Shown: positions 24,075 to 64,000, numbered from the stretch's first letter. The stretch is 64,000 bases of DNA from Candidatus Poribacteria bacterium (GCA_965242965.1 OZ251518.1:3392001-3456000), one strand, 5' to 3'. The notes: generated from the letters alone by a model not told the origin. A program made the numbers and translations.

Positions 24075-25142
24075 TTACTCGGGTTGCATGGATTCGCCGT
24101 GCAACAAAAATGCGCGGATATCGTAACGCCCGGGGCGTTCAATGGGTAAATCACCGTTCTCGATCATCAAATCAAGCGGATTGGCGTGCGTCCGCAGCGG
24201 CAATTGCACCACTTCATGCATGCGCGTGGACTCGTAGATGGCCATGATAATTTCAACGGCGGCGCGGCCATGCTTTGCCTCCCCGCGATGCTCAGGGCCG
24301 CCTTCAATCCAACTGACTAATTCGGCCGCCTGCGCGACGTGCTGATTCGTGCCATCGGAGGGACGTTCCTCCCAATCCGTGGCTTTATTATTCAGGAGCC
24401 GAACGCGTGCCTCGGTTACGTCGGCGATGCCATCGGTGCCATAGACAATGCCGCCCTGATAATTCGGTCTTCCGATTTCCTGCAGGAGCATGCCGATGCA
24501 TCCACCTTCAAAACCGACAATTCCCGCACTCCTGTCTTCGATTTGGATATCGCGCTCATACCGTTCGGTTTTGCGCTCTACGTTCCCCATAACCCACTGC
24601 GGTGCCGGATCTCCGAGCACATACCGCATCATATCAAAAAGGTGTGAGCAGTCGTTCAAAAGTCCCTGTCCACCCTGGCAGACAATTTGGCGCGGTTCGC
24701 CGATTGCACCCGCGGCGATGAGATTGCGCGCGTCTGTCCACGCCGAATTAAATCGACGCTGATGCCCAATGACGACTTTGACGTTGCTCCGCCGCGCGGC
24801 GATTAACATCTCATCGCATTCGCCGAGGCTGACACCCATCGGTTTCTCACAAAGGACTGCCTTCGGGCTGCGCGCGCAGGCAGCGATTGTCATCGGAGCG
24901 TGAAGTTTATGCCACGTCGCAACGCTCACAATATCAAGGGTTTCGCTATCCAGCAGGGCGCGAGCGTCTTGATAGCAGTGCTCGCTCGGCACACCGTAAT
25001 TTTGTGAAAACTTGTCAAGTGCAGCTTGAACCGGGTCTGCCAGGGCGACAATCTCGGTTTGTGCAACGCCTTGGTACCCACGCGCGTGGGCATTGGCGAT
25101 GCCGCCACATCCGATAATTCCAACGCGATATTTCGCTGCCAT
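24075..25142 (-). CDS. Gfo/Idh/MocA family oxidoreductase
   Basis: IIGCGGIA, VLCEKPM and GHQRRF motifs. Confidence 0.92.
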   Translation of the reverse strand: MAAKYRVGIIGCGGIANAHARGYQGVAQTEIVALADPVQAALDKFSQNYGVPSEHCYQDARALLDSETLDIVSVATWHKLHAPMTIAACARSPKAVLCEKPMGVSLGECDEMLIAARRSNVKVVIGHQRRFNSAWTDARNLIAAGAIGEPRQIVCQGGQGLLNDCSHLFDMMRYVLGDPAPQWVMGNVERKTERYERDIQIEDRSAGIVGFEGGCIGMLLQEIGRPNYQGGIVYGTDGIADVTEARVRLLNNKATDWEERPSDGTNQHVAQAAELVSWIEGGPEHRGEAKHGRAAVEIIMAIYESTRMHEVVQLPLRTHANPLDLMIENGDLPIERPGRYDIRAFLLHGESMQPE

Positions 25143-25176
25143 GTTTGCTCCTATGGACGGTTTTTTGCCTTTCGTA

Positions 25177-26283
25177 TTACTGAGCCGGTGCAACAGTCGC
25201 TTCCCCGAAATGTGCCGAGACTGCGACAAGATCCAACACATTCACCGTGCCATCGCCGTTTACGTCGCCAGTGAGCCCCTCACCGATCTGGCCAAATTGG
25301 CTTGCGACGAGGACGAGATCTTGGATATTAACAGTGCCATCCTCATTGACATCCCAAGCGGGGAACTCTGGCGGCGGCATCTCTATCGTTGTTGTCGTTG
25401 TGACTTCCGCTGTCTTCGTAGCATCAGTGCCCGAAGTTACTGTCACGGTGACTTCATAATCGCCCGGGGCTGTCAGCGCATCGCCAGTGACTGTTAAGAT
25501 GACATCAGCGGACACATCGGCATCAAGTTCAACAGATTTCTCGCTGAGCGCGCCGATGACACTACCCTCAACCCCGACTTCAGGCGAAACTTTAAGCGTT
25601 AACGTATCCATCATATTGCCGGTATTTTTGACGGTGAGGGTATACGTTACGCCTGCGACTGCATCCATTGTTGACTGCGCCATGCTGTCGGCTTCTAATG
25701 AAACGCCTGCAACGGTGGGGATAGGCGGCGTTGATTTAACCGAGGTGGTATAGATATAATCGCCTGTTGCTCCACCATCGTCATTAGCAGCGTTTCCTGC
25801 GGCGTAGAAGGTGATGGGACCGATGTCGACATCCGGTGCAGTCCATTGAACAGTCCACTGGTTCTCATCGGCTGTTCCCTTTGCGGTTCCAGGGGCATTG
25901 TGTTTAACGTATTGCTTACCGTTTGTTTCTGTTAGCAGCGTATTTGCTTCATCGGCGAGTTCAAACGTGCCGGCTTTGGCATCATTTGCATCCAGCGCAG
26001 TGATTTCAAATCCCCACCGGCTTTGTCCTGCACGCGCCAGATCTACGATAATCGTATACACCTCATTGGGCATATAGGTTTCTGGAATTGTCAACATCAG
26101 CGAACCGCCAGGAAGGTTCAATTCGTTACTGGCGTGACACCCCGCCATAGCACAAGTGGCTTCATTGGGAGCCCCCGTTCTTTCGTCTGGGGGGCCGAAA
26201 GAGTAAGCGAACGCGCTGCCGGTTGCCCCCATAAGAAGGAGGACAAGCATTGCGCAAAGAGGAACGATATGTTTTAACTTCAT
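25177..26283 (-). CDS. secreted Reeler (choice-of-anchor V-like) + Ig-like + dockerin protein
   Basis: Signal peptide; GPP..RTGAP.E.TC...CH, GFEITA, WT..WTAP and FYAAGNAAN..GDYIY (Reeler-like); two DVNxDGxVNxxDL dockerin repeats at the C-terminus. Confidence 0.82.
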   Translation of the reverse strand: MKLKHIVPLCAMLVLLLMGATGSAFAYSFGPPDERTGAPNEATCAMAGCHASNELNLPGGSLMLTIPETYMPNEVYTIIVDLARAGQSRWGFEITALDANDAKAGTFELADEANTLLTETNGKQYVKHNAPGTAKGTADENQWTVQWTAPDVDIGPITFYAAGNAANDDGGATGDYIYTTSVKSTPPIPTVAGVSLEADSMAQSTMDAVAGVTYTLTVKNTGNMMDTLTLKVSPEVGVEGSVIGALSEKSVELDADVSADVILTVTGDALTAPGDYEVTVTVTSGTDATKTAEVTTTTTIEMPPPEFPAWDVNEDGTVNIQDLVLVASQFGQIGEGLTGDVNGDGTVNVLDLVAVSAHFGEATVAPAQ

Positions 26284-26387
26284 CAAGTGTCTCCAATCAA
26301 CATTGCAGTTTTAAAAGCCCGCAATGGAAATATGTGTTGTATTCGCACAAGAAACGTATACAAACGCCTCGCGAACAACAAAAAGTC

Positions 26388-26439
26388 TTAAAAAAACGCC
26401 CCGGCCGGTTGCGGAACCGTTGCAGCGGGGCGTTTTTAA
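26388..26439. terminator. probable bidirectional intrinsic terminator
   Basis: AAAAAAACGCCCC...GGGGCGTTTTT inverted repeat with A/T tails. Confidence 0.6.
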
Positions 26440-26486
26440 GCATCGGTGGGACAGTTAAAACGGCAATCCTGTCCCACCGAGAGAAT

Positions 26487-29456
26487 CTATTTCAGGATGA
26501 CCATCTTGCGCGTAGCGGTGAAATCCTGTGTCTGGAGGGTATAGAAATAGATACCGCTCGCGACACGCTCACCGACTTCGTTTCTGCCATCCCAGTAGGC
26601 TGCGCTAGAGGCAGTCATGTAAGAGCCAGTCGGCTGCCAACCCAGGTTGAGCGTCCGGACTAAACGGCCGGATGAATCGTAAATGTGGATTGTGACTTCA
26701 GTTGCTTTGTTCAACTGATAGGGAATCCACGTTTCCGGGTTGAACGGATTCGGGAAGTTCTGTGCGAGGATGGTGTCCTTCGGTTGCACATCGCCGACAC
26801 GCAGTTGCAGCGTGAGGAAGGCATTCCGGATATCCGCGGTTGTCACCGTGCGCTGGAAGGGCCCGGAGACGATTGCGCCGCGCTCGTCATGGAGCGTGAT
26901 TTCGACTTTGTCACCGGCTTCCACGACGCTCTTCCGATTCATGTCTGCCCAGACAGCGGAACTCCGCTTCGCATCACTATTGACGCGCTGGCTTGCGACA
27001 GTCCCAGTGCGCAGGTTCTCTGCGACGACGGTATAGGATGCGCCCGGCTCCATTCCCTGCAAGTCGCTTGTGACGATGAACGCCCACGCGCTCTTATAGG
27101 TGGAGAGTGCGGGTGCTGCGGGAGCAGCCTCTTCCGCAGGTGCGGGTGCTTCAGCAGCCTCTTCCTCACCGTTCTCTTCGGCGGCGGGTGCTTCAACTTC
27201 GGCTTCCTCGGCCGGTGCATCAGCAGCGGCTTCCTCAGCCGGTTCTTCCGCTGCCGGTTCCTCGGCAACGACAGGCTCTTCAGCCGGTGCATCAGCAGCT
27301 GGCTCTTCCACAGGTGTCTCAGCCGGTGTCTCGGCAACGACAGGCTCTTCAGCCGGTTCTTCCGCTGCCGGTTCCTCAGCAACAACAGGCTCTTCAGCCG
27401 GTTCTTCCGCTGCCGGTTCCTCAGCAACGACAGGCTCTTCAGCAGCCGGTTCCTCGGCAACTGCCGGTTCCTCGGCGGCGGGTTCCTCTTCAGCCGGTTC
27501 TTCCGCTGCCGGTTCCTCAGCAACGACAGGTTCTTCAGCAGCCGGTTCTTCAGCAGGTGCCTCGGTCGGCTCTTCGGCGGGTTCCTCAGCCGGTTCTTCC
27601 GTTGTCGGGTTTGACCAGGCTTTACCCGTGAACGTTACAACACCACCAGCCGGCGTATTGACGATATACCCGCGTCCGCCATCAATGGCAAACCCAGCAT
27701 CGCCTTCAGCGACGGTGTAGCCGACAAAGTTCTGCGTAGTAGCATCCAGTTTGATGACAATCGTTGAACCCAGCATATCCGCGAGGGATTTCGCGGTGTA
27801 AGGTTCTGCTGGCATCAACGGGATAGAAATCATATTCAATCCCGGTTCCAGTGCAACATCAAAACCGGATTCTTCCGGCATCATGGGCTCTGTGACGACT
27901 GGCTCTGTCGGTTCCGCCGGTACCACTGGTTCCGTCGGTTCCACCGGCATTGGAGCCGAAACAGGCGTAATCGTCAGCATGGCTACCGGTCCTGTCCATG
28001 CAAATGCTTCGCCGACCTCCGCGCCGCCTTGGATGCCCGCGTGTTCAGCGATAACGCCACCTTCAGTTGGGACACGCGCGTTGCTACCCTCGGGGTCTGC
28101 CGCGGCATCTAAACCGAGCGGGCCGGGGATGTCTGATGCCATCTCCGTATTCTCTTCACTGCCAGCATCGTAAGCATTGAGCTCCAGGCTCATTGTTACG
28201 GGCGCGCCCTCTTCATCAAAGAGCGCAAAATCGGTAAGCGCGATGAATCCATCATTCGTGGATACCAACATCGCTCCAACAGAGAGCGAGGAGTTGGCTG
28301 TGTCAGCCGTTACCGTAGCGGTGGCACTCCCGCCGGGCGGAACAACGCCATCTGCAACGACAACGGATGCTTCCACGGCTGTTGCCAGCGTAACGAGCCC
28401 TGACGTATCACCACCCTCAGCGAGAGCAACGATTGCCTCGCTAGCAGGTTCACCCATCGGGGCGAGATTAATGCCAGCGGCGTGCGCAACAAATATAGGA
28501 GGTGAAAGAACTTGTCCCCCTGCTCCAGCTTCACCGGTGGTGAGATTCGTCAGGGTAACTTCAAACATTTGGCTGGTGGGCATCTCATCAGCGGCTGCGT
28601 CGTCATCGGCGGCTGCGTCGTCATCGGCAGCTGCGTCATCATCAGCGGCTGCGTCATCATCAGCGGCTGCGTCGTCATCAGCGGCTGCGTCGTCATCAGC
28701 GGCTGCGTCATCATCAGCGGCTGCGTCATCATCAGCGGCTGCGTCGTCATCGGCAGCTGCGTCATCATCAGCGGCTGCGTCGTCATCAGCGGCTGCGTCA
28801 TCATCGGCGGCTGCGTCATCATCAGCGGCTGCGTCATCATCGGCGGCTGCGTCATCATCAGCGGCTGCGTCATCATCAGCGGCTGCGTCATCATCAGCGG
28901 CTGCGTCGTCATCGGCGGCTGCGTCGTCATCAGCAGCACCATCGCCCTCGGCAGGTGCTTCATCCGCGGCGGCTGCAACGGTAACCGCGCCGTCCATCGT
29001 TGTGGAATCTAACGCGGCGGCGGCAGCATCGGAAATGAGGACACCGCTCAACGTAATGGCAGACGCTTTTGCCTCAACAACCATGAACGTCACCGTAGCG
29101 AGGGTGCCATCGCCATCAGAGGTTGCGCCTATAGCAACTGCAGCAAGTGGGATACTGCTGTCAGTCGGATCGCTCTGAACTGGTACTGCGCCCGCGGGCA
29201 GGTAATCCCCATTTGCACTAGAAACATAACTGAGCGCAGTGGGATCGAAATTGACAGTCACCTGATAACCGGCGACACCAACACCACCCGCGATGTTAAT
29301 ACTCACCGTCAGTTCTTCCCCGACGGCCGGGGAGGCTACTTCAGCAGGCTCTACAGAGACGACGGCTTGGCCGTAACTCATCGCTGTGAAACCCAAGCAC
29401 ATCACAACAGCTAATAAGGAAAATAGGATTTTCCTATTGAAAAGCTGAATTTTCAT
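26487..29456 (-). CDS. secreted cohesin + Spondin_N protein with acidic repeats and a T9SS/FlgD-Ig-type C-terminal sorting domain
   Basis: Cohesin-like N-terminus ([19 protein letters not shown]); spondin motifs VTLTNLT, LSPP...H, LAEGG, ML..TNDGF and AYDAGSE.N; C-terminal [16 protein letters not shown]...ASGIYFY...TRKMVILK. Confidence 0.85.
28588..28932 (-). repeat. 18-bp coding tandem repeat, (DDDAAA) about 19 times
   Basis: GCGGCTGCGTCRTCATCR units. Confidence 0.95.
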
Positions 29457-29740
29457 TAGATACTCCTTCTAATTTTAACATTTTGGCGTTCGCGCGCCCT
29501 CGCGGACAGCGCGAGCGAATTTCACGTTTGAGAAACGCACTCCACGGAAAGACAGGAGCAGTTCATTATTCACTATCGGCGTGTTGCCGTTACGCGCACG
29601 ACAGCGGATGTCTCAAACGTCGATTTCTTATCAGATACAAGTTTACCTTAATGCCAGAAAATTGTCAAGACAAAACGCATTTGCGCCAGATAATTTCCCA
29701 GACGTTTGCAATAGGCACACTTTTTCTGATGCTAACCTTA

Positions 29741-29769
29741 ATTATACCATAAATTTAAAGATAATGCAA
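29741..29769 (-). promoter_or_regulatory. sigma70-type promoter for the cohesin-spondin gene
   Basis: TTGCAT-17nt-TATAAT on the minus strand. Confidence 0.55.
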
Positions 29770-29781
29770 CAAAAAATCACA

Positions 29782-30414
29782 TTAACTCGTCGCGCGGGGT
29801 GCAAGCGTGTTCCAAACATCGCCTAATTCGGAAACGGCACGGTAAACCGGGTAAAGTGCCTCCCACATCGCTTTGCGGGCGGATTCGGCAGCAGCGGTAT
29901 CACCTGATGCGAGTGCCTCCGTGAGTTGCACGCCCATTTCTTGCTGAACCGCCGCGCACGTTTCAGTCAACTCTGCCAACAATTGCGCCGCATGTATCTG
30001 GCGCGTGACGAGTTCGGGCACCGATATCTGCATATCCGGCACCACATCGTAGGCGCGCGCCGACGCGAAATTGTGCGGCAGCCGTTCACCCGACTCCGCA
30101 CGCGGCGTGTGCGTCGGATGGATATGCGGCGTAACAGACAGATACATCGTTATCGGCTCATCGCCGAGCACACGCACCGAGTGCGGCTGGTCTGCCAAAG
30201 CGATGCACATCTGCCCTGGCCCGAGCTCCTCGCTCTCGCCGTCAATTGTAAATTCAACGCGTCCCTCCAAAATGAGGAAAATCTCGTGCCCGAGGTCATG
30301 GCTATGCAGCTGCGCGCTTTGTCCCGGCTCCATTTTCAAGAACCGCGAGCGAATCTGTGGTGTCACCAGCACATTGCGGATATCCGTGCGGTAATCGTAA
30401 ACTGGAAATCCCAT
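29782..30414 (-). CDS. cupin domain protein
   Basis: HSHD...E.F.ILEG and PGQ......QPH cupin motifs. Confidence 0.88.
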   Translation of the reverse strand: MGFPVYDYRTDIRNVLVTPQIRSRFLKMEPGQSAQLHSHDLGHEIFLILEGRVEFTIDGESEELGPGQMCIALADQPHSVRVLGDEPITMYLSVTPHIHPTHTPRAESGERLPHNFASARAYDVVPDMQISVPELVTRQIHAAQLLAELTETCAAVQQEMGVQLTEALASGDTAAAESARKAMWEALYPVYRAVSELGDVWNTLAPRATS

Positions 30415-32084: not shown

Positions 32085-33362
32085 ATGGCAAAGTTTACCA
32101 AACCCGCCGGCACGAACGATTTTTTACCAGACCAGATGGTTCAACGAAATTTCGTTGAAAACGTCGTTCGTGAAACGTTTGAAGCATACGGATACGCACA
32201 GGTGCAGACTCCGTTGTTTGAATCGTTCGCGCTGCTATCGGCGCAATCCGGCGAGGAAATCCGTCAAAAAATGTTTACGTTCGTCGGTTCGGACAGAGTG
32301 GATTACGCGCTGCGTCCGGAACTGACAGCCCCCGTGTGCCGGCTCATCGCGAACGGCGAACTCCAAAACCTGCCGTATCCGTATAAACTCTACTACGTTG
32401 GGCAGTGCGTCCGGCTAGAGACGGCATCGGCAAATCGCGAATTCCGGCAGGCAGGCGTTGAGCTCATCGGGGCGGCATCAGCTCTCGCGGATGCCGAAAT
32501 CATCACGCTCCCTGTCCGCATCTTGGAAAAACTGAACATTCACAACACGAAACTGAAAATCGGCGCGCCCGGTATCTACCGGCAGATTTTAAAACAGGTT
32601 CGCCTCCATCCGCGGGACCTCGGGGAAATCATCCTCGATTTGGACGTTATTTCACAAAGTCAGATGGAAGCATCGCCTAGCAACGTGGAAGAAACCTACA
32701 CGGCGCGGTGGCACCGCCACCTTCAGGTGCCGGAGGACATCGCGCATCGGTGCATCGCCGTCTCACAGATTCGCGGCGATAAGGACGCGGTGATGGCGGC
32801 ATGGGACACGCATCTCAAAGACATCGCTTGTGAAGCGAAGCAGGGACTCATCTCCCTCTGCGATGCACTGCACAATCACGACATCACCGATTTTGAGATA
32901 GACCTCGGGCTCACGCGCGGGTTCGATTTCTACACCGGCAATGTCTTCCAAATTGAACTCGAGGAGCCGCAACTGCCCCTCTGTGGCGGCGGCAGATATG
33001 ACACGCTCATTGAATCGTTCGGCGGGCCATCGCTTCCCGGCGCGGGGTTTGCGTTCCAATTTGATTCGCTGGTGACAGCGTTTGCGCAAACAGAAAACGC
33101 CACAATTTCTGCGAAGCGCGATTACTTTATCGCGACAACATCGCCTGAACTCACGGGGGAAGCGCAACGTCTCGCCGAGAAATTGCGGCGCACAGGTAAA
33201 ATTGTAGAGGTAGACCTGATGGCGCGCGACGCTCAGGCCCAGCACGATTATGCCGTGCAAGCGAACTACACCTACATGCTGAACTTAACTCCCGCACAAC
33301 CGCTCCGACAGATTGAGTTGAAAACCGGTAAGGCAGATGTTGTCGCCGTTGAGGAGTTGTAG
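32085..33362 (+). CDS. hisZ: ATP phosphoribosyltransferase regulatory subunit (HisRS paralog)
   Basis: LRPELTAPVCR, EFRQAGVELIG, AD.E, RG.D.YTG and GGGRYD motifs; precedes hisG; a separate intact hisS follows. Confidence 0.8.
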   Translation: MAKFTKPAGTNDFLPDQMVQRNFVENVVRETFEAYGYAQVQTPLFESFALLSAQSGEEIRQKMFTFVGSDRVDYALRPELTAPVCRLIANGELQNLPYPYKLYYVGQCVRLETASANREFRQAGVELIGAASALADAEIITLPVRILEKLNIHNTKLKIGAPGIYRQILKQVRLHPRDLGEIILDLDVISQSQMEASPSNVEETYTARWHRHLQVPEDIAHRCIAVSQIRGDKDAVMAAWDTHLKDIACEAKQGLISLCDALHNHDITDFEIDLGLTRGFDFYTGNVFQIELEEPQLPLCGGGRYDTLIESFGGPSLPGAGFAFQFDSLVTAFAQTENATISAKRDYFIATTSPELTGEAQRLAEKLRRTGKIVEVDLMARDAQAQHDYAVQANYTYMLNLTPAQPLRQIELKTGKADVVAVEEL

Positions 33363-33528: not shown

Positions 33529-34365
33529 ATGCAATCGCAATTGAAAGCGCGCGGGGGACAGGCCCCCGCGCTAAAGAAACTGAACCTACTTTTGCCCAAA
33601 GGCAGCCTGCAGGGTGAAACGCTTGAAATGTTGCAACGCGCCGGCTACGAAGTCAACGGCTATAGCGAGACAGACAGACTGTATCGGGCGACGTTCCGCA
33701 ACGACAGCGAGCTGCAAATCAAGATATCGCGCCCACAGGAGATTCCTGTCTACGTCGGAATGGACGATTTCTATGACATCGGCATCACCGGACAAGATTG
33801 GACGGAGGAGGCAGACGCGGCGGTTGAAGAAATCTTGCCGCTGGAATACGGACGCATCGACATCGTGCTGGCGGTGCGCCAAGAACGCGATGACATCAAC
33901 ACGTTTGAAGACTTGATGCATCTCGCCGATGCCAGCGTGCCCGGTGCCAGCGCGGTTTCAAACCGCATCCGCATCTCCACCGAATATCTCAACATCGCCG
34001 AGAAATACATCCTTGAGAAGACAGAGAACCAGATCGCCCCGGCTATCCTGACCCCGTGGAAGCGGCTCAATACGCGAGGCAGCTATCAGTCACCTATCAC
34101 GCTGATGCTTTCCTTCGGCGCGACAGAAGGGAAGCCACCGGAAGAGGCGGATGCTATTATTGATAATTCCACCTCGTCCCGGCGGACGCTCATGGCGAAT
34201 GAACTCAAGGTAATCGAGCTGCTGCGGGAATCTGAATCAACCCTGATTGCGAATCCAAAGTCGCTGCGCGACCCGTGGAAAGGCGCGAAGATTCAGGAAT
34301 TCAAGCAGACGCTAGAAAAAGGACTGCGCCGGCGGCGGAGTCAAACCTTGACTGGCCACATATAA
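33529..34365 (+). CDS. hisG: ATP phosphoribosyltransferase (apparently lacking the C-terminal regulatory domain)
   Basis: LPKGSL, RPQEIP.YV, DIGITGQDW, STEY and SFGATE motifs. Confidence 0.9.
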   Translation: MQSQLKARGGQAPALKKLNLLLPKGSLQGETLEMLQRAGYEVNGYSETDRLYRATFRNDSELQIKISRPQEIPVYVGMDDFYDIGITGQDWTEEADAAVEEILPLEYGRIDIVLAVRQERDDINTFEDLMHLADASVPGASAVSNRIRISTEYLNIAEKYILEKTENQIAPAILTPWKRLNTRGSYQSPITLMLSFGATEGKPPEEADAIIDNSTSSRRTLMANELKVIELLRESESTLIANPKSLRDPWKGAKIQEFKQTLEKGLRRRRSQTLTGHI

Positions 34366-34466
34366 TCATCGCCTTATCCATCTCTGTAGTTCGGGAGCAC
34401 CCGCTCCCGAACGTTCAAGATCAGGCGAGCTTGAACTACAGAACTTTCGTAATAAGGAGGCACCCC

Positions 34467-35804
34467 ATGGCAACCTTTATCAAACCGCGTGTGCCGCGCG
34501 GGATGCGAGACATCTTACCCGAACAGATGCTCCGCCGGCACTACGTCATCAATACCGTTCAGGCCGTCTTCGAGGAATTCGGGTTTGAACCGCTACAAAC
34601 GCCCGCGTTGGAACTCTCCGAAGTGCTGATGGGCAAATACGGAGCGGATGCCGAAAAACTTATCTATCAGGCAGGACACAGCGGTGGGAAGGAGAACATC
34701 TCCCTTCGCTATGATCTGTCCGTACCGCTCTGCCGCGTCATCGCCATGTATCCGCAACTGCCGAAACCGTTCAAGCGATACCAGATCGATCCGGTTTGGC
34801 GCGCCGAACGGCCACAGAAGGGACGCTATCGCCAATTCTATCAATGCGATGCCGATACCGTTGGGAGTGAGAGCATGCTAGCAGACGCGGAGAATGTCAG
34901 CCTTATCTATCACGTGCTGTCGCGCCTCGGTTTCAAGCAGTTCAAGATTAATATCAACGACCGGAAACTCATCACCGGCATCGGGCAATTCGCCGGCGTG
35001 CCAGCGGAACAACTCGGCGGCCTCTATCGTTCCATCGATAAATTGGACAAGATCGGGTTGGCCGGGGTGCGGGAGGAATTGCGTCAAAACGAAATTCCGG
35101 AATCTGTTATCGTGAAGCTGCTGACGCTGCTCCAAATTGAGGGAGATGCAGAGACGGTGCTCGGTGAACTGGGTGAGCAACTCGGCGATTCCGAGGCGGC
35201 GCGGGAAGGCATCGTTGAGTTGACTGAACTCATCGGCTACCTCACGATGCTCGGCGTGCCCGAAGAGTGTTATCGGGTGAACGTAGCGATGGTGCGCGGG
35301 TTGGAATACTACACCGGTCCGATTTATGAAACCGTCGTCGAAGAACCGAAAATCGGGAGCATCACCGGCGGCGGTAGATACGATGAACTCATCGGAAGTT
35401 TCAGCAAGCAGAACTATCCCGCCACCGGCACCAGCTTCGGCATTGAACGGATTATTGACGTGATGGAGGCGTTTGACATGTTTCCGCCTTCCATCGGCAA
35501 AACGGTGACAGACGTGTTGGTATCCGTTTTTGACGACGAGTTGATGCCGGCATCGCTGAAGTTAGCGACGCTTTTGCGTCAAAACGGCGTGCGCACTGAG
35601 GTTTATTTCCGGCCCGCCCGGATGAGCGCGCAGATAAAATATGCGGATAACCGAGGTATCCCTTACGTTGCCATCCTCGGTTCTGACGAAGTGGAGTCTG
35701 GGACAGTTGCGATTCGGAATCTTGCGACTCGGGAGCAGCAGAGCGTGGCGCGGGAGGAGGTTGTTGCGCGGATTCAGGAGGCGTTGCGGGGTTCTAGAAC
35801 GTAG
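34467..35804 (+). CDS. hisS: histidine--tRNA ligase
   Basis: PRGMRD, LRYDLSVP, WRAERPQKGRYRQFYQCD, RGLEYYTG, GGGRYD and GIERI motifs. Confidence 0.96.
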   Translation: MATFIKPRVPRGMRDILPEQMLRRHYVINTVQAVFEEFGFEPLQTPALELSEVLMGKYGADAEKLIYQAGHSGGKENISLRYDLSVPLCRVIAMYPQLPKPFKRYQIDPVWRAERPQKGRYRQFYQCDADTVGSESMLADAENVSLIYHVLSRLGFKQFKININDRKLITGIGQFAGVPAEQLGGLYRSIDKLDKIGLAGVREELRQNEIPESVIVKLLTLLQIEGDAETVLGELGEQLGDSEAAREGIVELTELIGYLTMLGVPEECYRVNVAMVRGLEYYTGPIYETVVEEPKIGSITGGGRYDELIGSFSKQNYPATGTSFGIERIIDVMEAFDMFPPSIGKTVTDVLVSVFDDELMPASLKLATLLRQNGVRTEVYFRPARMSAQIKYADNRGIPYVAILGSDEVESGTVAIRNLATREQQSVAREEVVARIQEALRGSRT

Positions 35805-39049: not shown

Positions 39050-41467
39050 CTAAGCATTCACCGGCCGGATAATCACCGTCACCTTCGTGCCTTGTGGTGG
39101 AATGACATCCGTGTTGACACGGTAGGTGTTATCATCGGTACCGGTAGGAAGCGGATGATTGAAAAGCGCGTCCGGATCCCGATAGACAGCGATGATGTTA
39201 TGAAACAGCTGCGCTGTCAACTGATTGTTGATAATTCTCGCTGTGAAAACCCACGGTGTTTCTTGCATCGGACGCTCTTGGAAGGCGTTCCATAACAACT
39301 GCTCCGCGCGGTGCGAGACAACCTCATCACCGCGTTCCCATTCTACCCAGATTTCAACGCGGGAACCCTCCGGCTGTCGAGTATCACCTTCTTCAACAAG
39401 ATTCATGCCATACTCAAAATCGTTTATACCGAGTGCGGTGAACATATAGAACGGCTCAGCGTGAAGGATCAGCACACTCTCGTGCGTTTTGCCCAACTTA
39501 CCGCACGCGAAGAATTCGATATTGGCATCCGCACCGACAATGTTAATCTCGCCCGGCACACGAACCTCCCGATTGTTGGTATCCACAGTGACATTGCCCA
39601 GTTGATAAAGGTTCTCACCAATCTTCTGAGGCTTCGCCAACTGCGCGTCTGTCGCAGACGTGGATTGCGGATAGACGGTGAGGGTTTCAGAGACACGCGG
39701 CCGGATATGGAACCCCTCCGTTACCACTCCCGCCGCTGTCTCTATTCGTGCCGCGATAGTTACGTCACCCGCTACCGTAGGCACCCAGTCAGCGGATATC
39801 GATGTCTCACCGAGGGTGGAAGTCCAAAGCACCTCTGTGGTTGCTACTTCCACATCATCGGCATAAAAGCCGACGTTAAGAATGCCATCAAAAGGCGTTC
39901 CAGTATTTCGGAGCGTTGCGCTGAGCCGCACCGCCTCGCCGACGCGCGGTGCCGGCGGCGAGAACCGCAGGCTCCGCGGCACGATACCGATATTCGGTTG
40001 CGTTGGCCCGACAAGCGCGCGGCTTAAGGACATCACAGCGAAGCATGTCGCCAAAAAATCGCCCTCCGCGCCTTGCCATTTGCCATCTGGCTCCTGACGT
40101 GCTACCATCATGCCAGCTATTTCATCATACCACGCGTGCCCGGCAAGCGTCTCCTGCATCGGCGGGATGTCGCAGAACCGCTGCAACGAAAGAAGATAGT
40201 AGTAAAGCCACGAATTAGAACCGGGATTGCGCGTCAATGTCCAATGCTTTTTCAGCCACGCGACACCCTTTTGAATCTGCCGGTCTTCGACAGAGACACC
40301 GCATGCGCGAAGGGCCCATAACCCCGTAGCTGTCATGCTGCCATAGACACCTATCGCCCACGGGGAGCCGTCGTCAACGAGATTATAGAGCCAGCCGCCG
40401 GTCTCGGTTTGGTTTCGGCGGACCCACTTTTCGGCGCGTTCCCATGTCTGCTGCGGAATCTCAAGGCCCGCCTGTTTTGCGGCGTAAAGCGCGTAGAGCA
40501 CCATGTTCATGTGCGCGCCATCGGCGGTGTAGCCGTAGCCCCAGCCGCCATCATCCCTCGGGTCGGTAAATGCGCTATCCTTTACCGGCAGCTGCTTTTT
40601 GACGAGTTGGTTCACGGCAAACTGCGCGCGCTCCCAGTAGGCAGCATCCTGGGATGCCAATAAAACCGGGACGACTACGGCGTAGTGGTAGACAGAAAAC
40701 CCATTCCAATCCTGTCCCAACAGAAACGTGAGCCCTTTTTCGACAGCCGGGGAATCGAGTGTCCGTCCAGCACCGAGGAGTGCCTGCAACGCTAAGGAAG
40801 TCTCCTGCGTTCTATCTTCGCCGAAATTCCACGCGGCACCCGGCACAACATTCTCTCCTAACCCCTTCAGGCTCGCGGCGCAAGTAATGCAAGACAGAAT
40901 CATTTGGTTTTTAGTGCCGCATTGCAGACAGGTGCGGCTATGTTTGCCCTGCTGCGCTTCTATCCACGCGACACCTCTGGCTATTGCGTTTTCGATTTGC
41001 GCCGGTGTGGCAGGCGGAAATGTCACTGCCTCGGCGACAATCGTGGTATGCGCAATGTTATTGCTATCGTCAGCCTCCTGAATATGCGTATCGCCATGAG
41101 GATTGACGATAGCATAAATCTCGGTTTGTCCGGGGGGTGGCTGCCATCGCGTTTTCACGCGCCTAGATTGTCCCGGTTTCAACTCAATAATGACATCCCT
41201 GCATACAATTTGGAGAGGTTGCGAATGCCTCGGGTCACCTTCATAAAGGTTAACTCCCAGGTCTTCGTTCATCGTCGGGGTGGCATCCCCAACGTTTTCC
41301 ACGCGCACCCAAATCATCACCTCTTCCCCTTCAACGGGTGTCGGATTAGAAAAGGTGATGCTATCGGGAGTGACGCGAAAATCCGGGAGTTGCGCGACTG
41401 CGCCATCGGAAAGCCACCCGACGACAGCAATAAAAATGGCAACGCAAGAAAGGCTGTGCCTCATCAT
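39050..41467 (-). CDS. secreted CARDB + prenyltransferase/squalene-cyclase-like repeat + CARDB + YdjY-like domain protein
   Basis: V.VENVG...E.DDSNN (CARDB); Q..DGGWGY and QEPDGKW QW-like repeats; C-terminal E..AC...GKTHES motif; AAGGAGG RBS. Confidence 0.72.
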   Translation of the reverse strand: MMRHSLSCVAIFIAVVGWLSDGAVAQLPDFRVTPDSITFSNPTPVEGEEVMIWVRVENVGDATPTMNEDLGVNLYEGDPRHSQPLQIVCRDVIIELKPGQSRRVKTRWQPPPGQTEIYAIVNPHGDTHIQEADDSNNIAHTTIVAEAVTFPPATPAQIENAIARGVAWIEAQQGKHSRTCLQCGTKNQMILSCITCAASLKGLGENVVPGAAWNFGEDRTQETSLALQALLGAGRTLDSPAVEKGLTFLLGQDWNGFSVYHYAVVVPVLLASQDAAYWERAQFAVNQLVKKQLPVKDSAFTDPRDDGGWGYGYTADGAHMNMVLYALYAAKQAGLEIPQQTWERAEKWVRRNQTETGGWLYNLVDDGSPWAIGVYGSMTATGLWALRACGVSVEDRQIQKGVAWLKKHWTLTRNPGSNSWLYYYLLSLQRFCDIPPMQETLAGHAWYDEIAGMMVARQEPDGKWQGAEGDFLATCFAVMSLSRALVGPTQPNIGIVPRSLRFSPPAPRVGEAVRLSATLRNTGTPFDGILNVGFYADDVEVATTEVLWTSTLGETSISADWVPTVAGDVTIAARIETAAGVVTEGFHIRPRVSETLTVYPQSTSATDAQLAKPQKIGENLYQLGNVTVDTNNREVRVPGEINIVGADANIEFFACGKLGKTHESVLILHAEPFYMFTALGINDFEYGMNLVEEGDTRQPEGSRVEIWVEWERGDEVVSHRAEQLLWNAFQERPMQETPWVFTARIINNQLTAQLFHNIIAVYRDPDALFNHPLPTGTDDNTYRVNTDVIPPQGTKVTVIIRPVNA

Positions 41468-41548
41468 GATAGTTACCTCCTTCTTACAATTAGACGTTCG
41501 CGAAACGGCGCGCTCTGGTGCTCTTGCCCTACAGAGAGTCATTGGGTA

Positions 41549-59180: not shown

Positions 59181-62100
59181 TTGAACCGAACATTTTCTGT
59201 GAACGCCCCCGAGGTCTTCCGTAAACATTGCATCCCTAAACGGGTTTTAAAAGTAGCAGGTCTTTTACTCTTACTATTTTTTCTACCCTTTCATGCCACC
59301 GCCAAATCCGCGCCCGACGCAGGGCTTTCTCCTCAGCCAGAAACGGAGGCAACGCCACCTGTCCAGCAGATGACGAGCGAGGCTTTTCATCAGGACGAAA
59401 GCCCCTTTTTTCTTTGGCAAACCGATTGGCAGAGTCCACTCACACCGCGCGCCGACAAACATGCCGAAGAACCTGCTGAAGAGCAGGAAGAATCTGGAGA
59501 ACCGGAAGAGCCATTAGACGCTTATCTCGAAAGTCTCCGGCGATGGAAGTATCCCCCGACGCTCATCGATTTGGATAACCTTGACACGTGGAAGCCGAGG
59601 AAGAAACGTGACGAAAAGGGCATCGCGCTTCCGATGGATTCTAACCTCCAGATTACCGGTTTCCAGTCTGTCACCGTAGAGGTTAACAAGACACACTACT
59701 TCGGTGAGGGAGATCTCAACCGTTACGGCGGCTACGGCTACGGTGGGGGATACGGTAGTTACGGCTCAGGCCTTGACCTGGGTTTAACCTCCTCCTACAC
59801 TTACGACGATTTTGGCTACGGTAGCACCGGCTTTGGCGATACCTACGGCGGCGGCTACGGGAGCCGTTATGGTGGCGGGTCCTACGGTGGCGGATACGGT
59901 GGCTACGGCGGTGGATACGGCGGATACAGCAGCGGTATCCCGCGCGCATCCGGCTTCAACATGCGGCAGTCACAGCAGTTCGGTTTGCACGGACGTGTCG
60001 GCGAACGGACTCACATCGCCGTGGATTACAGTGCAGGCTCCAGTTCACCGTTCGGCGGGGGTGGATACGGCGGCGGGTATGGCGGATACGGAGGTTATGG
60101 CCTCGGCGGCGCAAAAGAACAGAAAATCAAAATCTGGTATGAAGGCAAACCTGAGAGCATCATCAAAACTGTCGCTTTCGGTGACATCACGCTGACGCTG
60201 CCCAACACGCGCTTCTTAAACATCAATCGCAACCTGTTCGGCCTCGAAGGTGTGTTTGAGTGGAAAAACACCCGCGTGACGCTGTTCGGTTCTCGCAGCA
60301 AAGGCGTGCGTGAGGTGCGCACTTTCCGGGGGCAATCTCGCCGTGCGAGCGGGTATGGCAGCTATGGCCCACGCGGTATCCAAATCGCCGATGCCAACTA
60401 CGTCAAAAATCGGTTCTATCTGATTCACCAAGGCCCCGATGGCCTCATCCACGATGCCTATCTGCCTATCAAAGCCGGTAGCGAGGAGATTTACATTGAC
60501 GATGGCGTTGTCGGCAATAACCAAGGCGGCAAGCGCACTCCAAACGGATACTTCAACCCGCAGTTTCCGGGACAAGACTACAATATCGACTACGAGACTG
60601 GGGAGATAGAATTCCTCAGTCCTATCTCGGCGAGTTACACCCTCATCGTCGCTTACGAATACCTCGGCAATGGCGGCGGCACCGTCGGCACTCCCGGCAA
60701 CGTTTTCCCCGACGAACCCGTAACCGCTGGTGTCCCTGTAGTAGAGGTAACGGGCTCAGGCGAGCCTGTTCTAGACTCCCCGGCGCATCCCGACTCATAC
60801 GTCGTCCTCAAGGAAAAAGGCTTCCGCGGCACCGAGGCGAGCCACGTCTATAGCCTCGGCAATCGTAATATCAACCCGCGCGATTTTCAGCTATCCATCA
60901 TCAGACAGGGACAGAGCGAGACGTTTCAGACGGATGCCGGGCGCGTGCCTTACATCGAAATCTTTGGATTGGACAGGAACGGGGACGGCAATGTGGATTC
61001 GCAGTTCGTCGACTACGACAGAGGCATCCTCCGTTTCCCCGAATTCAGGCCGTTTGAAATCAGCGACCCGGGGCATCCCTACTACAAATACAGAGACGCG
61101 ATTAACAACCCCGCCATCTATCTTGAAAGTCTCCGCACTACCGATGCGGTTTACACGCTCATCGCCGACTACGCCTACCAATCCGAAACCTACAACGTCG
61201 GCTTATGGGTAATTCCCAACAGCGAGACGGTGCGTCTGAACGGCAGGGAGCTCGTGCGCGATGCAGACTATATGATGGTTTACGAAGTCGGCACTATCCG
61301 CTTCTTCACGGAACTTGACGAATTTGACGAAATCGTCGTTGAATTTGAAAAAACGCCGTTCGGCGGTGCATCGCAACAGGCAGTCGCCGGTGCGTGGCTG
61401 GAATACACGCACAAACCGAAAGCGAAATCCCAGAGAGAGCAGAACCTTGAGGATAGATTCAATCGGCTCGGAGGATTCCAAGGGATACAACCCGGTATCG
61501 GTGGCGATAGCCCCGGCGGACAGAATCTCTTTTCTGGCGCGGGGACTTTCGGAAATCGGCGTTCATACGGTGGCGGTTTTGGCGGCTATGGCGGCGGCAT
61601 GGGCGGTTTCGGTGGCGGATACGGCGGTGGGCTCGGCGGCTATGGCGGCGGTTACAGTTACGGTGGCTTCGGCGGCCGCTCGCGAAGCAGCTACCTCGGC
61701 AGTTACGGCGGCGGCATGAACTATTTCACACCCGTTTTTCAAAAAGGGTTTAATCTCTCAACGGGTTACATTCTGAACACCGGGCAGCGGCCCGCAGAGA
61801 TACCCGATGTCAACAACGTTCCAAATCGCCTGCAGGCGTTCAACATCAACACCAGCTTCGGCAGAGCCTTTAACATCGCTTGGCTGTTCAACCCGTTGCC
61901 GTTCATTAACGTCCGGAACGTGCCGCTCTCCATTGACTTCAGCGGCGAGGCAGCCTATTCGCATAACAACCCGAACTCTGTCGGTGTCGCGCTCATTGAT
62001 AGCATGGAAGGCGCGAAGGAAGCCACCACTATCCCAACGCTCAAATACAACTGGAAACCGTGTAGCATTCCGGGACAGGGGACAACGCCGGACACGACTA

Positions 62101-64000
62101 TTTTGGAAACGACGAATGAAAACCGCGCGCTGTTTAACGTTGCCCTGAAAGATAAAGACGAATCCGAGGCTGTCGGCAACTACATGCGCAATCGCGATGT
62201 CCCCGCCTCCTCTATTCAACCGCTCTCCCTCTCCACCGAAGAACGGCTTATCATGGAAGTCGGCTACGATTTCACTGACTTGGTGGAAGAATGGGGCGGC
62301 TTCTCCAGCGGCATCTCTAATGCCGGTGTCGATTTCTCCGAACGCGGGTTCGTCGAACTCTGGATGCGCGTCCAAGGCGACGACAACGTCACTCTCTTCC
62401 TTGACATCGGTATCATCAGCGAAGATACGGATAGAGACGAACGCCTCGATAGCGAAGACTTGCCCGATACACTCTTGGACATCAACGCCGATGGCAAGGT
62501 TGATGCGTTGGACCTGGATTTAGAGAACCTTCCCGATGAACTCCGATACCGTGGCAACGGCGCACTGGATACCGGTGAAGACATCGGTTGGACGTTCAAC
62601 GGCGCGTTTGAACGCATCGCCTTCGGTAGAAACAATCAGGTGCTTGATAGCGAAGACCTGAACGGCGACGGCGAGTTGAACGCCATTGATGCCTATTTCC
62701 AAATCTCCATCCCGCTTAACGAAATTCCTAACGAGTGGGTGAAAAGCCAAAACAACAACGGTTGGACGTTTCTCAGCATTCCGCTCTCGCGATTCGTGCC
62801 GCAAGGCACCCGCGTACCGAGTCTCGTGTTCGTCCAGCACTTCCGCTTCTGGCTGATGAAAAACCGTCCCGGCACCGTGCAAGGCACATTCCAGTGGGCA
62901 TCCATCGAGATAGTCGGCAATAAATGGCAGCAAGGCATCGTCACTAAAGCGCAAGCGGCGCAACCCGCAGGCGAACTCGCCGGACAGGCAATCGTCGAAG
63001 ATACGCTTGAAAGGTTCGTCGTCGGCACGAAAGACAACTTCAGCTATGACGATTATCAGCGCGCATACCTTGAAATTGAAGGCCATGAACAGTACGGCGA
63101 ACTCTTCAAGAAACTGCACCCGTTCACCGCCACTTCCCTCGGTTTTCAGACGCAACAGCAGCGTGAACAGACGCTGAGCCTCGACTATTACCTCTTCCCC
63201 GGTTCTTACGGCATTACCTCCAAGCAACTCAAGGGTTTAACACAAAGCGAGGGACAAGACTTTAGCAAACACGACACCCTTCGCCTCTGGCTGTATGGTG
63301 ACAAAAGCGATACCACCTTCGTGTTGCAACTCGCGCCTAGCGTGCGGACAGGCTATCGCAGCGCGTTTTACAACGCAGACCCTTTTGTTAACCCGCAGCA
63401 GGAAGAGGAGGACATCAACGTCTTTGAAAACCTCACCGACTACTACGAATACACCGTCCCTATTGACTTTGAGGGATGGCAGCTCATTGAGATAGATCTT
63501 CGTGATAGGCACAGAAATGCGTATCCTGATGTTACAGCCGGAGCAGGACAGGGGAGTGAGCTCCTGGGCACGACATTAGTTAACGAAGTGTCAACTCCCC
63601 CGGCGGAACCCGATGCACCCGATGGGCACCCCGACGGCTTCACCGTGAGAGGCAGAACTAGCACACAACTCTCCATCAAAAACATCGGCGGCATCCTGCT
63701 CGGCATCCGAAACGACACCGGGCGCGAAATCAGCGGCGAGGTTTGGGTAAACGAAATCCACCTCGGTGATCCGCTCGTTCGTTCCGGTTGGGCGCGCCGC
63801 GGAAATATGTCTGTCTCCCTCGGCAACCTCATCAAACTCCGCGGCGGCTATGCCAGCCAAGACAAAGATTTCGAGAGCGGTGCCGGCGAAATCGGGCGGC
63901 AACGCCTCTCCTCGCGCGGCTATAGCACAACTAATAACGACTTTAACATTGACGCAGATGTCAACATGTTCTCATGGCTGCCCATCCGCTATTCTGTCAG
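59181..64000 (+). CDS. sprA: SprA/Sov-like T9SS outer-membrane translocon (partial, runs off the window)
   Basis: Missing from the ORF track, as expected for a frame with no stop in the window; manual translation of the 5' and 3' parts gives a signal peptide, Q.QQ..L.G.VG, KIWYEG.PESIIK...FGD..L.LP...LFG, DSEDL repeats and GEVWVNEIHL...GWA. Confidence 0.78.
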   Translation, partial: MNRTFSVNAPEVFRKHCIPKRVLKVAGLLLLLFFLPFHATAKSAPDAGLSPQPETEATPPVQQMTSEAFHQDESPFFLWQTDWQSPLTPRADKHAEEPAEEQEESGEPEEPLDAYLESLRRWKYPPTLIDLDNLDTWKPRKKRDEKGIALPMDSNLQITGFQSVTVEVNKTHYFGEGDLNRYGGYGYGGGYGSYGSGLDLGLTSSYTYDDFGYGSTGFGDTYGGGYGSRYGGGSYGGGYGGYGGGYGGYSSGIPRASGFNMRQSQQFGLHGRVGERTHIAVDYSAGSSSPFGGGGYGGGYGGYGGYGLGGAKEQKIKIWYEGKPESIIKTVAFGDITLTLPNTRFLNINRNLFGLEGVFEWKNTRVTLFGSRSKGVREVRTFRGQSRRASGYGSYGPRGIQIADANYVKNRFYLIHQGPDGLIHDAYLPIKAGSEEIYIDDGVVGNNQGGKRTPNGYFNPQFPGQDYNIDYETGEIEFLSPISASYTLIVAYEYLGNGGGTVGTPGNVFPDEPVTAGVPVVEVTGSGEPVLDSPAHPDSYVVLKEKGFRGTEASHVYSLGNRNINPRDFQLSIIRQGQSETFQTDAGRVPYIEIFGLDRNGDGNVDSQFVDYDRGILRFPEFRPFEISDPGHPYYKYRDAINNPAIYLESLRTTDAVYTLIADYAYQSETYNVGLWVIPNSETVRLNGRELVRDADYMMVYEVGTIRFFTELDEFDEIVVEFEKTPFGGASQQAVAGAWLEYTHKPKAKSQREQNLEDRFNRLGGFQGIQPGIGGDSPGGQNLFSGAGTFGNRRSYGGGFGGYGGGMGGFGGGYGGGLGGYGGGYSYGGFGGRSRSSYLGSYGGGMNYFTPVFQKGFNLSTGYILNTGQRPAEIPDVNNVPNRLQAFNINTSFGRAFNIAWLFNPLPFINVRNVPLSIDFSGEAAYSHNNPNSVGVALIDSMEGAKEATTIPTLKYNWKPCSIPGQGTTPDTTILETTNENRALFNVALKDKDESEAVGNYMRNRDVPASSIQPLSLSTEERLIMEVGYDFTDLVEEWGGFSSGISNAGVDFSERGFVELWMRVQGDDNVTLFLDIGIISEDTDRDERLDSEDLPDTLLDINADGKVDALDLDLENLPDELRYRGNGALDTGEDIGWTFNGAFERIAFGRNNQVLDSEDLNGDGELNAIDAYFQISIPLNEIPNEWVKSQNNNGWTFLSIPLSRFVPQGTRVPSLVFVQHFRFWLMKNRPGTVQGTFQWASIEIVGNKWQQGIVTKAQAAQPAGELAGQAIVEDTLERFVVGTKDNFSYDDYQRAYLEIEGHEQYGELFKKLHPFTATSLGFQTQQQREQTLSLDYYLFPGSYGITSKQLKGLTQSEGQDFSKHDTLRLWLYGDKSDTTFVLQLAPSVRTGYRSAFYNADPFVNPQQEEEDINVFENLTDYYEYTVPIDFEGWQLIEIDLRDRHRNAYPDVTAGAGQGSELLGTTLVNEVSTPPAEPDAPDGHPDGFTVRGRTSTQLSIKNIGGILLGIRNDTGREISGEVWVNEIHLGDPLVRSGWARRGNMSVSLGNLIKLRGGYASQDKDFESGAGEIGRQRLSSRGYSTTNNDFNIDADVNMFSWLPIRYSV

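Follow-up and report, generated by a model that had tools for sequence, protein, structure and literature searches.

A cohesin-spondin protein and a neighbouring dockerin-Reeler protein of Candidatus Poribacteria: a candidate surface-display pair built from bacterial-type domains

Two adjacent genes in a 64,000-nucleotide stretch of a Candidatus Poribacteria genome (GCA_965242965.1 OZ251518.1:3392001-3456000; hereafter the window) encode domains resembling parts of animal F-spondin: a Reeler-like domain in one protein, here called P1, and a spondin domain in the other, P2. Do the two proteins imitate a protein of a sponge host, as the initial annotation proposed, or do they belong to a bacterial surface structure? 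We give a probability of about 0.5 to the reading that P2 and P1 are a minimal non-cellulosomal cohesin-dockerin surface-display pair, in which P1 presents a probably haem-binding Reeler-fold domain. Since the F-spondin-like parts belong to large bacterial families, the two proteins are probably a bacterial display pair and not a copy of the host protein.

The open reading frames (ORFs) of both genes were found on the minus strand, co-oriented as annotated and 200 nt apart, with P2 upstream. P2 carries a C-terminal domain (CTD) of the type IX secretion system (T9SS).

26487..29456, minus strand: P2 gene, 989 aa; T9SS-anchored cohesin-spondin stalk protein (ORF and domain matches)
about 26387..26440, minus strand: terminator-like hairpin and T-run in the spacer between P2 and P1 (sequence, scan, and folding)
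25177..26286, minus strand: P1 gene, 369 aa from TTG; dockerin-tagged Reeler-fold protein (ORF and domain matches)

Translation of P1 probably starts at the ATG one codon after the TTG, because an identical database protein (P0001) has 368 aa. At an E value of ≤0.001, there were 884 relatives of P1 and 447 of the P2 region, and both proteins therefore lie far beyond chance ORFs.

P1 is composed, in order, of a signal peptide, a Reeler-fold domain, an immunoglobulin (Ig)-like domain, and a dockerin.

25738..26229, minus strand: P1 Reeler-fold or choice-of-anchor V domain, residues 20-183 (NF041895, Pfam Reeler, and fold)
26134..26154, minus strand: Cys45-x4-Cys50-His51 motif, candidate haem c attachment site (alignment)
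25381..25704, minus strand: P1 Ig-like spacer, residues 195-302 (modelled beta-sandwich and weak profile matches)
25201..25356, minus strand: P1 type I dockerin, residues 311-362, with two calcium-loop repeats

The first domain scored 109.3 bits against the NCBIfam choice-of-anchor V model, NF041895 (cut-off, 42), and 27.2 bits over residues 68-162 against Pfam Reeler (PF02014; cut-off, 21), making it a member of both families. The best single-domain fold matches of the P1 model (mean predicted local distance difference test [pLDDT] score, 75) were the human F-spondin reeler structures 2zot, 2zou, and 3coo, with target template modelling (TM) scores of 0.62 to 0.67 and 20 to 22% identity. The Ig-like region was modelled as a beta-sandwich with a pLDDT of about 80 to 90 and had weak profile matches to FixG_C (E = 0.0017) and NPCBM_assoc. 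Type I dockerins are defined by two duplicated calcium-binding loop-helix repeats. The C terminus of P1 scored 39 bits against Pfam Dockerin_1 (PF00404; cut-off, 22.9) and contains two D-x-N-x-D-G-x-x-x-x-x-D loops, whose Asp, Asn, and Gly positions were invariant in 25 sequences; a profile of P1 orthologues matched solved dockerins (best, 2y3n_B; E = 1e-7). No T9SS or other sorting-domain match was found in P1 at an E value of ≤1 in Pfam or NCBIfam. Profile scores and fold agree with the architecture first annotated for P1, a signal peptide followed by Reeler-like, Ig, and terminal dockerin modules without a sorting domain.

The signal peptide of P2 precedes a cohesin and an acidic repeat; behind these come a spondin domain of the F-spondin (FS) type, two domains without a name, a further repeat, and the T9SS type A tail. 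A homologue of the T9SS translocon lies elsewhere in the window.

28977..29351, minus strand: P2 cohesin, residues 36-160 (Pfam Cohesin)
28585..28976, minus strand: acidic Asp/Ala repeat, likely a flexible linker (Tandem Repeats Finder and translation)
27966..28568, minus strand: P2 spondin (FS) domain, residues 297-497 (NF038123 and fold)
27537..27956, minus strand: P2 unnamed middle domain, about residues 501-640, conserved in orthologues
27182..27608, minus strand: Pro/Ala/Glu-rich repeat, second linker (Tandem Repeats Finder and translation)
26763..27071, minus strand: P2 unnamed pre-CTD domain, residues 796-898
26496..26756, minus strand: P2 T9SS type A C-terminal sorting domain, residues 901-987
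59181..63998, plus strand: T9SS translocon SprA/Sov homologue; the ORF runs off the window end

The cohesin scored 45.3 bits against Pfam Cohesin (PF00963; cut-off, 24.1), and a profile of P2 orthologues matched 14 solved cohesin sequences at an E value of ≤0.01, among them ScaB 3l8q (the best, E = 4e-12) and NagJ 2jh2 (E = 4e-7). In the acidic stalk behind it, Tandem Repeats Finder detected an 18-nt unit in 19.4 copies at 28585-28934. The spondin domain scored 122.3 bits against the NCBIfam spondin model NF038123 (cut-off, 40) and 22.9 bits against Pfam Spond_N (PF06468), narrowly under the cut-off of 24. Its only fold matches at an E value of ≤0.001 were to C2-like FS domains, those of mindin (3d34, chains B and A) and F-spondin (3q13_A), with target TM scores of 0.54 to 0.64, and the sole PDB sequence match of the region was Spondin-2 (E = 0.0049). 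The model of residues 295-640 was confident in the spondin part only; the middle domain had a pLDDT of <50. That middle domain had no Pfam or NCBIfam match, and a search of the Atlas with it gave a best score of 0.86 with no family attached, yet it was conserved at 60 to 94% in all 24 complete orthologues. The pre-CTD domain, 63 to 91% identical in orthologues, showed weak NCBIfam similarity to the C-terminal part of PorU.

The P2 tail is a type A sorting domain by its score of 35.4 bits against TIGR04183 (cut-off, 23), with 27.2 bits against Pfam Por_Secre_tail and 42.7 bits against FlgD_ig, and no dockerin match was found in P2 at an E value of ≤1 in Pfam or NCBIfam. The SprA/Sov homologue matched TIGR04189 with an E value of 7e-48 and Pfam SprA_N with 26.4 bits; its TIGR04189 score of 162.7 bits lies below the cut-off of 200 because the ORF is truncated by the window end. 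No other T9SS components were seen within the 64-kb window. Here, too, profile scores and fold bear out the annotated order of cohesin, acidic stalk, spondin, and T9SS-type CTD with no dockerin. As for the individual domains that had been named, Reeler, Cohesin, and Dockerin_1 all scored above their Pfam cut-offs; the spondin call stood with NF038123, where it was clear, and not with Pfam Spond_N. The Pro/Ala/Glu-rich repeat, the two conserved unnamed domains of P2, and the Cys...Cys-His motif of P1 were absent from the initial annotation.

What might the Reeler-fold domain of P1 do? No function is attached to the name choice-of-anchor V. An exhaustive search with the N-terminal domain returned 6,145 representative clusters at an E value of ≤0.001, and the nearest Atlas clusters were short bacterial "Reeler domain" proteins of Planctomycetota, Acidobacteriota, and Gemmatimonadota. 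Cys45...Cys50-His51 was invariant in the alignment of P1 relatives; it lies about 20 residues past the mature N terminus, N-terminal to and outside the Pfam Reeler match. All 92 of the longer proteins with this domain had C-x(2-4)-C-H at the same position (x2 in 81, x3 in 1, and x4 in 10). Among the best 150 of the 6,145 representatives, the pattern was present in 144, with Cys-Cys spacings of x2 in 94, x3 in 11, x4 in 39, and x5 to x7 in 5, and the first Cys was lost in 1, which has a single Cys. In an alignment of 150 sequences, which includes P1 itself and leaves out one 93-aa fragment, every sequence (150 of 150) had the Cys-His dyad, and 83% kept a second histidine, His129 in P1. Such a pattern would fit a haem c site in which the first thioether varies and bis-His ligation is possible, and the invariant Cys...Cys-His together with the second His suggests haem c binding and redox or haem/iron chemistry.

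Partner domains were scanned in 62 representatives, all those of at least 327 aa among 141 new representative ids. A T9SS tail was present in 10 and a dockerin in 4, and a redox-type partner occurred in 6 (pyrroloquinoline quinone [PQQ] sugar dehydrogenase in 3, CHRD in 2, one of them overlapping the dehydrogenase set, cupredoxin in 1, and cytochrome c/peroxidase in 1). One protein of 906 aa (P0328) carries a Reeler-like domain, a dockerin, and a cohesin in a single chain. As elsewhere in the NF041895 (MXAN_6652) family, the domain of P1 comes immediately after the signal peptide, with spacers and a variable anchor behind it; the anchor of P1, a dockerin, is a minority choice in that family (4 of the 62 longer representatives). 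Beta-sandwich c-type haem proteins such as cytochrome f and cytochrome P460 may be likened to this domain, itself all-beta with a Cys...Cys-His, but no sequence or fold relation to them was detectable in PDB searches. The C-x4-C-H of P1 also differs from the CXXCH motif of c-type cytochromes, and the spacing varies over the family. Among the titles listed by literature searches, none concerned choice-of-anchor type V, those on Reeler domain, bacteria, and haem were all tick or insect studies, and none on DOMON, CXXCH, or beta-sandwich dealt with such a domain.

All named members of the P1 and P2 families belong to Candidatus Poribacteria. Among the best 120 of the 884 P1 relatives, 116 had a dockerin and none had a T9SS tail. 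Among the best 120 relatives of the P2 spondin/middle region, 85 had a cohesin and none had a dockerin; 13 carried DUF3108_like instead of the cohesin, and some relatives were shorter. One variant of this DUF3108_like-type or shorter form has a spondin domain and CTD and no cohesin. A further P2 relative, P0131, which NCBI assigns to the sponge Geodia barretti, is most likely a symbiont sequence within the sponge assembly.

To what extent does the pair travel together? A genome scan with one genome per species yielded 605 candidates; 496 of these stretches were confirmed, and 80 of the 496 loci were analysed. A full-length P1 orthologue was present in 27 of the 80 loci, each of which (27 of 27) has a co-oriented P2-type gene immediately upstream. 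A contig end truncates three of these loci; in the 24 complete ones, the cohesin, middle, pre-CTD, and CTD segments were each found in 24 and the spondin segment in 22. The adjacency is thus conserved in these loci, cohesin included, as the initial proposal required. The two orthologues without spondin (L003, 7039-9333, 764 aa; L010, 7782-9749, 655 aa) are intact ORFs that keep the cohesin and T9SS tail and have no spondin match in Pfam or NCBIfam. Conservation thus centres on the cohesin/anchor function. Other loci depart in the opposite direction, with two tandem spondin domains in P2 (L005) or two P2-like genes in tandem (L021). The number of Ig-like repeats per P1 orthologue ranged from 1 to 15; those of L024, L025, and L026 have 8 to 15, compared with one in P1, so that the reach of the docked domain would differ widely among species.

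Dockerins and cohesins are not confined to this pair. The 496 confirmed stretches encode dockerin-type relatives and are almost all from Poribacteria. Of the 80 loci, 53 were matched by the dockerin only, 52 of them poribacterial and one from Methanolobus; in this sole non-poribacterial locus (L044), the archaeon Methanolobus vulcani has a dockerin-like stretch. The 52 poribacterial loci hold 77 other dockerin modules: 42 in dockerin-CTD genes, 16 in cohesin-dockerin-CTD genes, and 19 without a detected tail, where a tail was called within 450 nt and some of the 19 may be cut by locus ends. Cohesin-dockerin-CTD genes form tandem arrays of up to five, as in L068. Tandem genes ending in cohesin-dockerin-T9SS tail or dockerin-T9SS tail were also seen in L070, L075, L049, L037, L074, and others. 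So many dockerin, cohesin, and CTD modules and arrays indicate that the cohesin and dockerin are, as judged from sequence, a phylum-wide building kit for T9SS cargo. A socket and a plug in one protein could let surface proteins chain to one another. P1 is in the minority here as a plug without an anchor, and P2 is a socket with an anchor and without a plug. Cohesins of P2 orthologues are 58 to 73% identical among themselves but share no more than 57% identity with the other cohesins of the loci analysed, and they therefore form a distinct group. The dockerins of P1 orthologues are 66 to 89% identical to one another and 40 to 69% identical to the dockerins of other genes. By title, literature searches found nothing relevant on Poribacteria with dockerin or cohesin, nothing on Poribacteria with spondin, nothing on Poribacteria among papers on cohesin, dockerin, and type IX secretion, and nothing combining Reeler, sponge, symbiont, and eukaryotic-like.

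In the display-pair reading, P2 would be exported by Sec, would then cross the outer membrane by the T9SS, and would be fixed to the cell surface by its type A CTD. Its stalk would be made up of two low-complexity linkers, the spondin-type beta-sandwich, and the two unnamed domains, with one cohesin at the far N-terminal end and the spondin domain as an accessory stalk part. P1, which lacks an anchor, would also be exported by Sec; the calcium-type dockerin at its C terminus would plug into a cohesin, most probably that of the neighbouring P2. The Reeler-fold domain would then hang at the stalk tip, spaced by one Ig-like domain, where it would be located on the cell surface and would bind haem. 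The complementarity of the modules, already pointed out in the initial annotation (dockerin and no anchor in P1, cohesin and anchor and no dockerin in P2), favours the pair, and we also count the T9SS translocon homologue in the same window for this reading. Because other bacteria anchor the same domain otherwise, including directly by a T9SS tail, the dockerin appears to be the anchor choice of this phylum. Complex prediction for the P2 cohesin and P1 dockerin gave a score of 0.08 (mark, 0.32) and is neutral on binding.

Several observations weigh against a P1-P2 display pair with a haem-binding tip. The mutual binding of P1 and P2 is something that we infer. No recognisable signal for crossing the outer membrane was found in P1 by Pfam and NCBIfam scans. 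P1 may for this reason be carried out through the T9SS as a passenger bound to P2, although such export is purely speculative. Poribacteria carry many other cohesins, and 16 of the 77 other dockerin modules lie in cohesin-dockerin-CTD genes, so that P1 could dock elsewhere. A whole block is syntenic in the same loci, with a cupin gene upstream, P2, P1, and a GFO oxidoreductase and a MacB-like permease gene downstream, and the P1-P2 pair is no better conserved than these flanking genes; adjacency alone is therefore no proof of coupling. The hairpin annotated at 26388-26439 does exist, as a GC-rich 12-bp stem followed by a T-run (-25.9 kcal/mol; z = -2.89; 1 of 200 shuffles was as stable). A hairpin and T-run are kept between P2 and P1 in 27 of 27 orthologous loci (-14 to -25 kcal/mol), so that the two genes are likely transcribed separately. 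Between the hairpin and the P1 start, a generic scan found no sigma-70-like site, although the promoters of this phylum may differ. An Rfam scan of 24900-29900 gave only one subthreshold chance match, inside a repeat, and the spacer had no known RNA element. As for haem, the Cys...Cys-His region is of low confidence in the P1 model, and variable Cys-Cys spacing would be unusual for haem c sites; such variation would also permit a disulfide loop and a histidine that binds a metal in place of a haem c site.

The main rival explanation is that P1 and P2 have no specific partner and are members of a promiscuous, phylum-wide cohesin-dockerin surface network, adjacent through inherited gene order. 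We consider this possible, if somewhat unlikely. The numbers of dockerin-type stretches (496 of 605, almost all poribacterial) and of other dockerin modules (77 in 52 loci, many in tandem arrays), flanking genes as syntenic as the pair itself, the terminator-like hairpin between the genes, and dockerins of other genes that reach 69% identity to that of P1, within the 66 to 89% range of the orthologues, are all what such a network would produce. It accounts less well for the exact complementarity of a P1 without an anchor and a P2 without a dockerin, for P2 cohesins that stand apart (58 to 73% identity among orthologues versus at most 57% to others), and for a cohesin kept in P2 even where the spondin domain was lost. 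The dockerin also bears on whether P1 leaves the periplasm. P1 might be a soluble periplasmic haem or binding protein whose dockerin-like repeats are calcium-binding or folding elements, consistent with its Sec signal peptide, its want of an outer membrane sorting signal, and the weak matches of EF-hand models to the dockerin repeats. Retention of the dockerin in 116 of the best 120 P1 relatives, its match to solved cohesin-binding dockerins, and the T9SS tails, true surface anchors, that the same domain bears in other phyla make this the least likely of the explanations considered.

The proposal that a Reeler-Spondin complex mimics F-spondin and acts on the extracellular matrix or receptors of the sponge host was not supported, and we regard it as very unlikely. 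The Reeler fold of P1 and the FS-domain fold of P2 do recall animal F-spondin (SPON1) and mindin (Spondin-2): both match solved human domains (TM score, 0.62 to 0.67 for the reeler; the only significant matches for the FS domain), Reeler and Spondin_N are established as occurring together in F-spondin, the organism is a relative of Poribacteria, and one P2 relative is filed under a sponge genome name. However, identity to the animal domains is only 15 to 22%, and both domains fit bacterial models much better than they fit the Pfam models, which are mainly animal (109 versus 27 bits and 122 versus 22.9 bits). The Reeler-like family is very large and extends to free-living phyla; its haem-like motif, a bacterial Cys...Cys-His outside the Pfam Reeler match, and its fusions to redox enzymes also argue against a matrix role. 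In contrast with SPON1, a single polypeptide, the two domains here are divided between two proteins and arranged the other way round, and Pfam and NCBIfam scans of P1 and P2 found no thrombospondin (TSP1) repeats. As judged by Spond_N, a Pfam model that detects bacterial spondins poorly, none of 92 longer proteins and none of 62 representatives was a fused Reeler-spondin form. P2 can also do without its spondin domain, which is absent in 2 of 24 orthologues, and the adjacency that the proposal drew on is no better conserved than the flanking genes.

The preferred display-pair reading can be set against known systems. Like the anchoring scaffoldin and subunit of a cellulosome (Clostridia, Acetivibrio ScaB), it has a cohesin on a cell-anchored protein and a C-terminal, type I-like two-loop dockerin on a secreted partner, and the profiles of both modules match solved cellulosomal ones. 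P1 and P2 nevertheless do not constitute a cellulosome: no carbohydrate-active enzyme, glycoside hydrolase, or carbohydrate-binding module was found in either by Pfam or NCBIfam, P2 has one cohesin only and is no multi-cohesin scaffoldin, and the cargo of P1 is a Reeler-fold domain. Known cellulosomal anchors are based on S-layer homology (SLH) domains or sortase, whereas the anchor here is a T9SS CTD in a diderm bacterium. T9SS type A cargo of Bacteroidota shares the type A sorting domain of P2 and the SprA/Sov homologue of the window, but the organism here is poribacterial, P2 would in its proposed role be a cargo that scaffolds a second protein, and many poribacterial cargos have a dockerin, or a cohesin and dockerin, just before the tail. 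Closer precedents are cohesin-dockerin pairs outside cellulose degradation; the NagJ structures 2jh2 and 2ozn of Clostridium perfringens are among the best matches of the P2 cohesin (E about 5e-7). The phylum, cargo, and anchor differ from those of NagJ-type pairs, and the modules here belong to a large expansion in which they occur together with T9SS tails. Peer et al. reportedly made a wider survey of non-cellulosomal cohesins and dockerins in 2009.

A more far-reaching version of the display-pair reading can be formulated, which we hold to be rather doubtful. The "Reeler" half would be an undescribed beta-sandwich c-type haem class, with thousands of clusters over bacterial phyla and interchangeable surface anchors. 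In Poribacteria, a dockerin would attach it to the end of a spondin stalk anchored by the T9SS, forming a modular extracellular device for redox or haem/iron handling at the interface with the host matrix.

Other genes of the window were recorded along the way. The longest ORF of the GFO/IDH/MocA oxidoreductase (24075-25241, minus strand) shares 65 nt with the 3′ end of P1; translation probably starts further inside the ORF, because the Rossmann domain begins at residue 39. This gene is 86 to 95% identical over the orthologous loci, far above P1 and P2. On the minus strand are also two probable surface proteins, one of 830 aa with CARDB and YdjY domains (39050-41542) and one of 1478 aa with lamin tail domains (53097-57533), and a large fused Eco57I/MmeI-type restriction-modification enzyme with an N6 methylase and a TaqI-like specificity domain (45737-49009). 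The plus strand encodes a PSCyt2/PSD1 (DUF1549/DUF1553) protein (7496-9691), of a type frequent in Planctomycetes-like genomes, and two histidyl-tRNA synthetase-like genes close together (32085-33362 and 34275-35804), the first of which is without an anticodon-binding domain, like HisZ-type regulatory subunits. No tRNA was found within the window.

What does the locus mean for these bacteria? The best-known setting of cohesin-dockerin assembly is the cellulosome of Gram-positive anaerobes. In the uncultured, sponge-associated phylum considered here, at least 27 species-level genomes combine it with type IX secretion, which points to a general way of building surfaces from plug-in parts. If P1 and P2 bind each other, they would provide a two-gene test case of how an anchorless, perhaps export-signal-less, protein reaches the surface. 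Domain names common to a bacterial and an animal protein are, alone, no ground for proposing host mimicry. Finally, the Cys...Cys-His motif gives the very large choice-of-anchor V family a testable function, haem binding.

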